21,554 nt of DNA from positions 67,511 to 89,064 of the forward strand of contig JAYFMV010000019.1 of assembly GCA_042408245.1 (NCBI GenBank), read 5' to 3'. The notes under the pieces are model-generated. The model did no database searches. It was not told the DNA's origin and was given only the letters and a program-made list of their open reading frames with translations. The translations under genes and the position numbers were made by a program. The stretch is from Potamolinea sp. (lineage in GTDB: Bacteria; Cyanobacteriota; Cyanobacteriia; Cyanobacteriales; Coleofasciculaceae). Positions 10,574 through 13,899 of the stretch are shown one piece after another. How positions within the stretch are numbered: position 1 is the first letter of the stretch; each line of letters starts with the position of its first letter.

Positions 10574-11179
10574 ATGGCAGTTTTCGAGGGCAACTTTACT
10601 TCATCAACACCTCTGCGGTTTGCGATCGTCATCGGTCGCTTTAATGACTTAGTGACGGACAAACTTTTAGCAGGGTGTCAAGATTGCTTGAAGCGCCACG
10701 GTGTTGATGTTAATCCCCACGGCACTCAAGTTGACTATATTTGGGTGCCTGGTAGTTTTGAGGTGCCGATGCTGGCTCGCCAAGCAGCGCTCAGCCGTCG
10801 TTATGATGCTGTGATTTGCCTTGGTGCCGTCATCCGAGGTCAAACACCTCATTTTGATTATGTCGCTGCTGAAGTCTCCAAGGGGATCGCAGCGGTTGGC
10901 ATGGAAACTGGCGTGCCAGTAATTTTTGGTATTGTGACAACGGATACCATGCAGCAAGCTCTGGAACGTGCGGGCATCAAGAGTAATAAGGGTTGGGAGT
11001 ATGCTATTAATGCCTTAGAAATGGCAAGTTTAATGCAGCAGTTTAAGGGCAACCGAGCAGCCTCAGCTTACAATGCCTATGAAACTGGTGCCGTGACTAC
11101 CCAAGCTCTGCCAATTCCCGCGAATCGGACGCTGGTTTCAGAGTCAACGGTTGAACATACAGAGGCTACTAATTCTTGA
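10574..11179 (+). CDS. ribH: 6,7-dimethyl-8-ribityllumazine synthase, with a C-terminal extension of about 40 aa
   Basis: MAVFEGNF...[19 protein letters not shown], then VPGSFEVP and the rest of the lumazine-synthase core. An extra Ala/Thr-rich tail follows the conserved domain. Confidence 0.9.
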
Positions 11180-11590: not shown

Positions 11591-12076
11591 GTGAGTGACA
11601 AACCTTACGACGTATGTTTTGTAGATAATCTTTGCTTGAAGTATTTTGTTCATGAAATAGCGCTTGTGCCATCTCAGAAAACTCAGAAAATTGACTTAAA
11701 TACTGAGTACCCCTGTCCTTGTAGGCGTCGGGGAGCTTTAGTACCGATTACACTGACAGAAGCATTTGGCTGCAATCGCTGTCAGCAAATTTTCGTTGTC
11801 GAAGAAAGTGGGTATGTGATTGAGCAACTGTCCACAAGCTACCCCTACAAAAAAGCTTGGCGTTGGACAGGCCATCGGTGGAGTACGGCAAATTCTAGTC
11901 TTGGAGAAAGTTATCTTCCCATAGCGCTGGGAATTGTCTTCGTGCTGCTGATTTTCTGGCTACCGTTGGCCCTGCGCTCTCCCACAGGACTAAGCAACAT
12001 TATTCTCTGGACATTGCTGGCCGTGCTGCTAGCTTTGCTCCCAGCGTTAATGGTCTGGCTAACTTACCGACGTTAG
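11591..12076 (+). CDS. Hypothetical protein with an N-terminal zinc-ribbon-like region (CPC...CNRC) and two C-terminal transmembrane helices
   Basis: 161-aa ORF ending 7 nt before the proA-like start. EYPCPCRRRG...FGCNRCQQIF. Hydrophobic segments LPIALGIVFVLLIFWLPLAL and IILWTLLAVLLALLPALMVWL. Confidence 0.5.
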   Translation: MSDKPYDVCFVDNLCLKYFVHEIALVPSQKTQKIDLNTEYPCPCRRRGALVPITLTEAFGCNRCQQIFVVEESGYVIEQLSTSYPYKKAWRWTGHRWSTANSSLGESYLPIALGIVFVLLIFWLPLALRSPTGLSNIILWTLLAVLLALLPALMVWLTYRR

Positions 12077-12082
12077 CAGAAT

Positions 12083-13351
12083 ATGGAAATCGACGCTTGT
12101 AGCTTTGCGCTTAACCCGACTGATGCTGTGAGTCGTGCTTATCAGGCTTCTCTGGCTCTAGCAACTACCAACGGAATAGACCGCTCTCGTGGCGTCCAAG
12201 CGATGGCGCAGGCGCTGCAAAAATCCTTTGATGATATTTTGGAGGCCAACACCCTAGATTTAGAAGCAAGCCGAGAAATGGCTGTGCCAGAGCTAGTTTG
12301 GGAGTGGCTAAAGCTGACACCAGAGCGCCTTCAAACCACCATCCAGATCTTACAAAGAATTGGCGAATTATCAGATCCGATCCGGCGGGTGATGAACGCC
12401 TCTTATCAACTTGAACACTCTCAGACTTACGCTCAATTGATGCCACTGGGAGTAATTGCTTTAATTTATGAGGCATTTCCAGAGTTGGGGGCGATCGCTG
12501 CTGGTTTTTGTATCAAGACTGGCAATAGCCTAATTCTCAGAGGAGGTAGCGAAGCCAGTCAATCTAACCAGGTAATTGCCAAAGCCTTACAAACTGCACT
12601 CGATGAAGCTGGTTTGCCAGTGGGATGCTTGGAACTATTGCCATCAGAACAGGGTACTTCGATTCGAGATTTAGTCACTCAAGATCGATATCTAAGTCTG
12701 GTTATTCCCTATGGACGACCAACGCTAGTCCAGCAGGTGACGCAGCAAGCAACGGCACCCATTTTGAGGTCGGCAATGGGCAACTGTTACCTTTACTGGT
12801 CTGGCACTGGTAGTTTGGGAATGGTAACTTCGGTGATTTTAGACAGTCACGCTAGCGAACCAGACCCCGTGAATGCGATTGAAAAAATTCTCATCAGTCG
12901 CTTGTCAAAGCCTTCTTCCTTGGTAATTTTGTGGAAAAGCCTCAAGGAAAAAGGCTTTAAACTTAGAGGCGATGCTGAGCTAGTGGCTGAATTTCCCGAA
13001 TATTTGACCTTGGCTACAGATGCTGAGTGGAACCAACCTTATCTTGATAAGATTGTGGCTTTTAAAGTAGTAGACACTCTCGAAGAGGCGATCGCCTGGA
13101 TGAACCACTACAGTAGCGGTCATGCTGATTGCATTGTCACCGAGTCTTACCAAGAAAGTCGCCAGTTTGCTTTAGGTGTCGATAGCGCTTCAGTTTACAT
13201 TAATTCCTCGCCGCGATTTTCACGCAACCCAAAACGGGGAGATGCAGTTTTTCTGGGGATGTGTAATCAGAAAGGATATCGTCGGGGGATGATTAGCCTT
13301 GAGACGCTAACGACACTCAAACAGGTTGTGCAGGGAAATGGAAAATATTAA
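12083..13351 (+). CDS. Gamma-glutamyl phosphate reductase (ProA) family protein; probable non-catalytic paralog with Val in place of the nucleophilic Cys
   Basis: Collinear with ProA along the whole length: PLGVIALIYEA, KTGNSLILRGG, GNCYLY (ProA GVCHIY), HADCIV (ProA HSDAIL), VDSASVYINSSPRF and LETLTTLK. At the TCNAxETLLV active-site motif the protein reads DPVNAIEKILI: P, N, E and LL[IV] are conserved but Cys is replaced by Val. Confidence 0.75.
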   Translation: MEIDACSFALNPTDAVSRAYQASLALATTNGIDRSRGVQAMAQALQKSFDDILEANTLDLEASREMAVPELVWEWLKLTPERLQTTIQILQRIGELSDPIRRVMNASYQLEHSQTYAQLMPLGVIALIYEAFPELGAIAAGFCIKTGNSLILRGGSEASQSNQVIAKALQTALDEAGLPVGCLELLPSEQGTSIRDLVTQDRYLSLVIPYGRPTLVQQVTQQATAPILRSAMGNCYLYWSGTGSLGMVTSVILDSHASEPDPVNAIEKILISRLSKPSSLVILWKSLKEKGFKLRGDAELVAEFPEYLTLATDAEWNQPYLDKIVAFKVVDTLEEAIAWMNHYSSGHADCIVTESYQESRQFALGVDSASVYINSSPRFSRNPKRGDAVFLGMCNQKGYRRGMISLETLTTLKQVVQGNGKY

Positions 13352-13629: not shown

Positions 13630-13728
13630 CAACTAATAAGATCATGTCCAACTGCATCGGTATTATCAGCTCAGACAGCAGGAGCCTCACCCCATAATCG
13701 CTTCGATTTGGTGTGAGAGGAATGCGAG

Positions 13729-13899
13729 TCAAAGGAAGGGGTTCAATACCCCTTTCTTTGACATTTTCTTGGCTAGAGTTCGCAGGTAATCTCTAAACAC
13801 GTCATTCTGGGTTCTGGCGGTCATCTCGCAGTATTGTCGCCACACTTCTTTTTCTTCCGGGGTGAGGCGAAAGTTAACATTTTCGGTAAGTTTTGCCAT
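13729..13899 (-). CDS. Small ribbon-helix-helix (CopG/Arc-like) DNA-binding protein, 56 aa; below the ORF-track length cutoff
   Basis: Translates as MAKLTENVNFRLTPEEKEVWRQYCEMTARTQNDVFRDYLRTLAKKMSKKGVLNPFL. The beta-strand (VNFRLT) plus two helices match the RHH signature. ATG at 13899, stop at 13729-13731. The start lies 35 nt from the divergent tnpB-like start. The terminator sits about 100 nt downstream. Confidence 0.5.
   Translation of the reverse strand: MAKLTENVNFRLTPEEKEVWRQYCEMTARTQNDVFRDYLRTLAKKMSKKGVLNPFL

Follow-up and report, generated by a model that had tools for sequence, protein, structure and literature searches.

Loss of the catalytic cysteine in a cyanobacterial ProA paralogue paired with the gene of a predicted zinc-ribbon membrane protein

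Results

Genes and features of the locus

The window analysed here is a stretch of 21,554 nucleotides from Potamolinea sp. (contig JAYFMV010000019.1). Two genes lie head to tail in it, the first encoding a small protein with a zinc-ribbon motif and two predicted transmembrane (TM) helices, the second a ProA-like protein of the group that we call the V clade, after the Val found in place of the catalytic Cys. Their coordinates and those of the associated features are collected in Table 1.

Table 1. Features of the two-gene locus and its surroundings, in positions of the window
Feature	Coordinates	Strand	Basis
ribH (lumazine synthase), conserved upstream neighbour, context	10574..11179	+	Upstream in 56/81 loci
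Gene of the zinc-ribbon / two-TM protein, 136 aa	11666..12076	+	Conserved GTG start, homologue alignment
Zinc-ribbon motif C17-P-C19 ... C36-x-R-C39 (CPC-X16-CxRC)	11714..11782	+	Homologue conservation
Two predicted TM helices, residues 83-104 and 109-133/135, 4-residue loop	11912..12064	+	AF2 model, conservation
Spacer CAGAAT, 6 nt, from the stop of the small gene to the ATG of the ProA-like gene	12077..12082	+	Sequence
Gene of the Cys-less ProA paralogue (V clade), 422 aa	12083..13351	+	ORF, profile, structure alignments
Val263 codon, column of the ProA catalytic Cys (E. coli Cys253)	12869..12871	+	Structure alignments, clade comparison
Hairpin with 15-bp stem and T-rich tail, candidate terminator of the two-gene unit	13728..13762	+	Consensus scan only

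The hairpin downstream of the pair may alternatively be the end structure of an adjacent TnpB element. Upstream of the pair no riboswitch or other known RNA was detected, Rfam finding a tRNA-Gly only.

The small protein

The earlier note had described the small protein as 161 aa long, starting at GTG 11591. This length has to be corrected: the protein almost certainly counts 136 aa and starts at GTG 11666. All 120 homologues align from the residue encoded by this second GTG, and for the first 25 residues of the longer frame nothing is aligned in 86-115 of the 120; the mechanical extension of the ORF up to GTG 11591 is not conserved. The protein has 936 homologues. It matched no Pfam or NCBIfam family, nor was any Pfam domain found among these homologues, and yet 45 columns are invariant in an alignment of 34 sequences.

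As the earlier note had pointed out, the protein has a CPC...CxRC motif and two hydrophobic helices; both are real and nearly invariant. C17, C19, C36 and C39 are invariant in alignments of 121 and of 34 sequences, divergent members included. The AF2 model predicts short beta-strands at residues 24-27, 33-36, 42-46 and 51-54, so that a CxC and a CxxC pair flank short beta structure in the manner of a zinc ribbon; the domain probably binds metal. Conservation in the TM region concerns W98-L-P100, P126 and W131, and the helices are followed by a C-terminal Y-R-R. The distribution of charges suggests an N-in/C-in topology. A fold search with the small protein returned generic helical-hairpin matches only, and the zinc-ribbon domain is therefore without an informative structural relative.

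The ProA-like protein keeps the fold but not the catalytic cysteine

The collinearity with gamma-glutamyl phosphate reductase (GPR, ProA) proposed in the earlier note is borne out by solved ProA structures, which match the 422-aa product end to end (residues 13-421) with E-values of 1.6e-68 for 4GHK, 1.5e-67 for 1O20 and 1.4e-59 for E. coli 8ZOK. Its AF2 model (pLDDT 90.2) is a complete three-domain ALDH-type fold and superimposes on the GPRs of E. coli (8ZOK), Thermotoga (1O20) and Burkholderia (4GHK) with TM scores of 0.88-0.90. Profile scores are less uniform. The protein reaches 320 bits with NF001221, above the equivalog cut-off of 289, and 277 with TIGR00407, below that of 317; divergent V-clade members obtain 157-208 bits only with the ProA equivalog profiles. 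For comparison, the housekeeping ProA of Tolypothrix PCC 7101 scores 563/550 bits (NF001221/TIGR00407) and its paralogue 338/290. Pfam PF00171 (Aldedh) also matches the window protein (60.6 bits, cut-off 23), the best stretch being residues 14-229. Homologues annotated with 489-497 aa do not represent genuine fusions to the small protein: their starts are called too far upstream, and the extension lies in another frame.

Cys253 is the active-site Cys of E. coli ProA (PMC11573504). In the alignment with the three structures the segment pdpVNaiekilis lies without gaps over ygtCNtmetllva, pgtCNaaekllvh and pstCNtvetllvn, which puts Val263 where these enzymes have their catalytic Cys, as had been claimed. 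The surroundings are kept in the window protein, as also noted before (P260, N264, E267, L270), although N264 is replaced in some clade members. The earlier note had singled out C235, the Cys of GNCY, as a possible occupant of the catalytic column. This residue is the counterpart of the Cys in the canonical G-x-C-H motif, outside that column, and the claim stands; C235 occurs in 85% of clade representatives and the G-x-C-H Cys in 93% of canonical ProAs. The Val is a property of the clade: the motif D[PA]VNAIEK is common to all 120 nearest homologues, and in all of about 26 divergent clade representatives the column holds Val, Ile or Ala, against Cys in 110/110 canonical representatives.

The Cys is not the only loss. 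Among 34 positions conserved at 95% or more in canonical ProA (n=126), 18 are not retained. R75, R132, R210, K256, C263, E319, D381, E390 and T395 (window numbering) occur in 0% of clade representatives; apart from C263 and T395, each of these is at least 98% conserved in the 126 canonical ProAs. The replacements are themselves conserved within the clade (W75 in 100%, Y210 in 80%, R381 in 95%). The cofactor side is less affected and retains part of its framework, namely K145-x-G-N148, R/K-G-G-S-E157, G211 and G233. The lost invariant residues presumably bind substrate or cofactor, a role deduced from their invariance because the papers on P5CS and GPR structures contain no residue-level contact list. 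E319 we take to be the counterpart of the Glu that holds the nicotinamide ribose in ALDHs; with its loss, NADP(H) binding is therefore uncertain.

The earlier note predicted a loss of thiohemiacetal chemistry, hence a pseudo-reductase or a protein of different function. This prediction gains strength from the absence of the Cys across a deep clade, together with that of eight other invariant residues, mostly charged. With the nucleophilic Cys gone, and almost all invariant charged residues too, the sequence predicts that the protein cannot perform the thioacyl-enzyme chemistry of ProA; very probably it does not bind gamma-glutamyl phosphate either. With its catalytic residues lost and purifying selection acting on it, the protein falls under the sequence-based definition of a pseudoenzyme, inactivity being a prediction.

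An ancient cyanobacterial paralogue

The V clade was monophyletic in 100/100 neighbour-joining bootstraps and never the exclusive sister of the cyanobacterial housekeeping ProA. Every member with a name is cyanobacterial, the range reaching from Pseudanabaenaceae and Thermosynechococcaceae to Nostocales, and at least 562 matching stretches were confirmed in GTDB species genomes; this distribution describes a sample and is not exhaustive. Across orders the ProA-like proteins are 69-87% identical.

The earlier note called the gene a paralogue and proposed looking for a second, canonical proA. A Cys-containing ProA is indeed present beside the Val-type gene in 11 named strains. This housekeeping ProA has 435 aa and the sequence QYPA[AV]CNAIETLL, with the catalytic Cys in 120/120, and is about 32% identical to the Val-type paralogue of the same genome. 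It was reached with a probe sequence, not itself evidence, to which genuine ProAs of Nostocales are 81-85% identical. No cyanobacterial housekeeping ProA was recognised among 150 listed representatives; three of them (P0385, P0362 and P0480) were rejected because their genomic contexts are non-cyanobacterial. Tolypothrix tenuis PCC 7101 appears to carry both genes on one chromosome, the longest record of its housekeeping ProA and the record of its Val-type locus both measuring 8,700,819 bp. Neither the Cys- nor the Val-type gene turned up in a cyanobacterial copy when plasmids were searched with tblastn. The ProA-like copy is an ancient paralogue, and proline synthesis in these organisms is served by a separate canonical ProA. 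We found no publication on the V clade in the literature, and the NCBI and JGI pipelines label many of its members "glutamate-5-semialdehyde dehydrogenase".

The two genes are linked and their rates of evolution covary

The ProA-like gene had been said to start 7 nt after the small gene. Its ATG does begin at the seventh base after the stop, but the spacer itself is 6 nt. Of 162 pairs, 119 have a spacer of 4 nt and 149 one of at most 8 nt. No Shine-Dalgarno-like element is seen at the junction. A fusion of the two ORFs by read-through or frameshifting can be discarded: although they share a frame here, they do not in loci with the usual 4-nt spacer.

The tight coupling described in the earlier note finds support, linkage being near-absolute in either direction. 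The small gene is directly upstream in 80/81 genome loci and the ProA-like gene comes next in 79/80 metagenome loci, both exceptions being contig ends. The pair is also found in the most divergent members, in PCC 6312 and in a contig whose protein clusters with the protein of a Pseudanabaenaceae MAG. No third gene is tightly linked: ribH and psbZ upstream, and genes for a desaturase and a Met-gamma-lyase-like protein downstream, represent conserved synteny only. The fatty-acid desaturase gene, which has the opposite orientation, is a neighbour in 28/82 loci. None of 160 loci showed proA, proB or proC in synteny with the pair.

Both genes are under strong purifying selection, with mean distances (0.26 for the ProA-like and 0.32 for the small protein) comparable to that of ribH (0.21). 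Their rates covary: the partial correlation between small and ProA-like proteins given ribH is 0.585, a value reached by 0/2000 permutations, and that between small protein and ribH given the ProA-like protein is -0.05, with the reservation that neighbouring genes may covary in part through a common local history, for which ribH, 0.4-1.5 kb away, was the control. The arrangement suggests that the two genes are co-translated and their products membrane-associated.

Discussion

Function of the pair

We consider it rather probable that the V-clade protein is a non-catalytic or re-purposed subunit derived from ProA and anchored to the membrane through its zinc-ribbon partner. The two genes would be co-transcribed and probably translationally coupled through their stop-start junction of 4-6 nt. 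The small protein would insert its two-helix hairpin in the membrane and expose its zinc-ribbon domain to the cytoplasm; the two products would form a stoichiometric complex, keeping the ProA-derived subunit at the cytoplasmic face. There it would play a ligand-binding, regulatory or scaffold role rather than a catalytic one, and it may still bind NADP(H).

On this reading the ProA-like protein would count among the ALDH-superfamily pseudoenzymes. Towards ProA itself (EC 1.2.1.41; NF001221 / TIGR00407; 8ZOK, 1O20, 4GHK) the resemblance extends from overall collinearity and three-domain fold to motifs, i.e. the N-terminal helix region A-N-x-x-D...L-x-L-T-x-x-R, the cofactor motifs K-x-G-N and R-G-G-S-E, and N-A-x-E-x-[LV]-L around the active site. 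The V clade nevertheless stands apart as a separate monophyletic group, without the catalytic Cys, without nine ProA-invariant residues, and with a gene always paired with that of a membrane protein, never with proB. LysW is a soluble protein whose acidic C-terminal Glu carries the substrate. Like our pair, LysW/LysY (ArgW/ArgC-type) associates a small zinc-ribbon protein with a homologue of acyl-phosphate reductases, in glutamate/aminoadipate metabolism (PMC12041015); LysY, however, has a GAPDH/ArgC and not an ALDH fold, and keeps its catalytic Cys. We do not regard the small protein as a LysW-type carrier, for its C-terminus is a two-TM hairpin with Y-R-R and lacks the acidic Glu; the likeness is one of analogy only.

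Alternatives

The conserved residues Y210, R212, Y236, H256, K268 and R381 would fit a new pocket, for catalysis or for a ligand, as well as a dead one. The protein could accordingly have become an NAD(P)-dependent oxidoreductase or another catalyst acting on a different, less charged substrate without a covalent Cys intermediate; the small protein would then bring it to a substrate in the membrane, for example an aldehyde related to lipids or quinones. Strongly conserved replacements (W75, Y210, R212, N234, Y236, S255, P260, D261, K268, R381) are what a remodelled pocket should display, the changes R75W, R132F/L, R210Y and E390A/F would suit a more hydrophobic ligand, the cofactor framework is partly kept, and both membrane tethering and the frequent desaturase neighbour are compatible with this idea. 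That neighbour, though, is present in about a third of the loci only and on the opposite strand; E319 is lost; and a column that accepts Val, Ile or Ala, next to an N264 replaced in some members, speaks against a finely adjusted centre of catalysis there. We know of no ALDH-fold enzyme able to work once its nucleophilic Cys is gone. Vertebrate ALDH16A1, the documented example lacking this Cys, is considered inactive (PMC12041015). It is likewise a conserved ALDH-fold protein that has lost its catalytic residues, and is presumed to act through protein-protein interaction rather than catalysis; but it belongs to another ALDH family, is eukaryotic, carries an extra C-terminal domain, lacks a membrane partner gene of its own and is of independent origin. 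On balance a new enzymatic function seems unlikely to us.

ALDH-type enzymes are dimers or tetramers, and the oligomerisation strands are kept in the AF2 model (E113-129, E410-418). The protein might in consequence form hetero-oligomers with the housekeeping ProA, or bind ProB, and so, as a regulatory or decoy subunit, anchor proline synthesis at the membrane or adjust it there. Pseudoenzymes commonly regulate their active paralogues (PMC10211241), and the transcripts of both Synechocystis "proA" genes are reported to increase upon nitrogen starvation (PMC12386471). Of the two Synechocystis genes, sll0461 and sll0373, the former, which lies downstream of the hypothetical gene sll0462, may be the Val-type one. 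Such a role is nonetheless improbable, more so than a new catalytic one. At about 32% identity, and with a clade that is not sister to cyanobacterial ProA, an ancient independent history is likelier than the joint evolution of a hetero-oligomer; the 160 loci offer no proline-gene synteny, and the ProA-ProB interaction is not needed in E. coli (PMC11573504). A working gamma-glutamyl-phosphate reductase with another nucleophile, e.g. Cys235 of GNCY, deserves hardly any credence. It is true that the NF001221 cut-off is passed and that Cys235 is frequent in the clade and lies in the active-site region. But the residue occupies the column of a non-nucleophilic Cys and is missing in about 15% of the clade, eight further invariant residues have gone with the Arg/Lys set and E390 among them, the TIGR00407 cut-off is failed and divergent members score lower still, and the genomes concerned also encode a canonical ProA.

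Significance

Returning to the membrane-held, ProA-derived subunit, we may carry this reading one tentative step further, to a possibility that we find more doubtful than not: the pair may be an unrecognised, membrane-anchored sensor or regulator of cyanobacteria, in which the dead ProA serves as ligand-binding subunit and the zinc-ribbon/two-TM partner couples it to a membrane process, e.g. thylakoid electron transport or complex assembly. The subunit would perhaps read NADP(H) or a metabolite of the glutamate family. If true, nitrogen and redox status would thereby be connected with the membrane.

Both Synechocystis "proA" genes have been treated as enzymes of the proline pathway (PMC12386471). 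If one of them is dead, inferences from transcripts, metabolic models and the targets chosen for proline/glutamate engineering need correction. The two-gene module is kept in at least several hundred cyanobacterial species and changes at a pace about as slow as that of a housekeeping enzyme, which makes it a well-defined target for physiology specific to cyanobacteria. It would also offer a clean and ancient bacterial case in which an ALDH-fold enzyme became a pseudoenzyme or was put to a new purpose, by a wholesale swap of active-site charges and the gain of a dedicated membrane partner.

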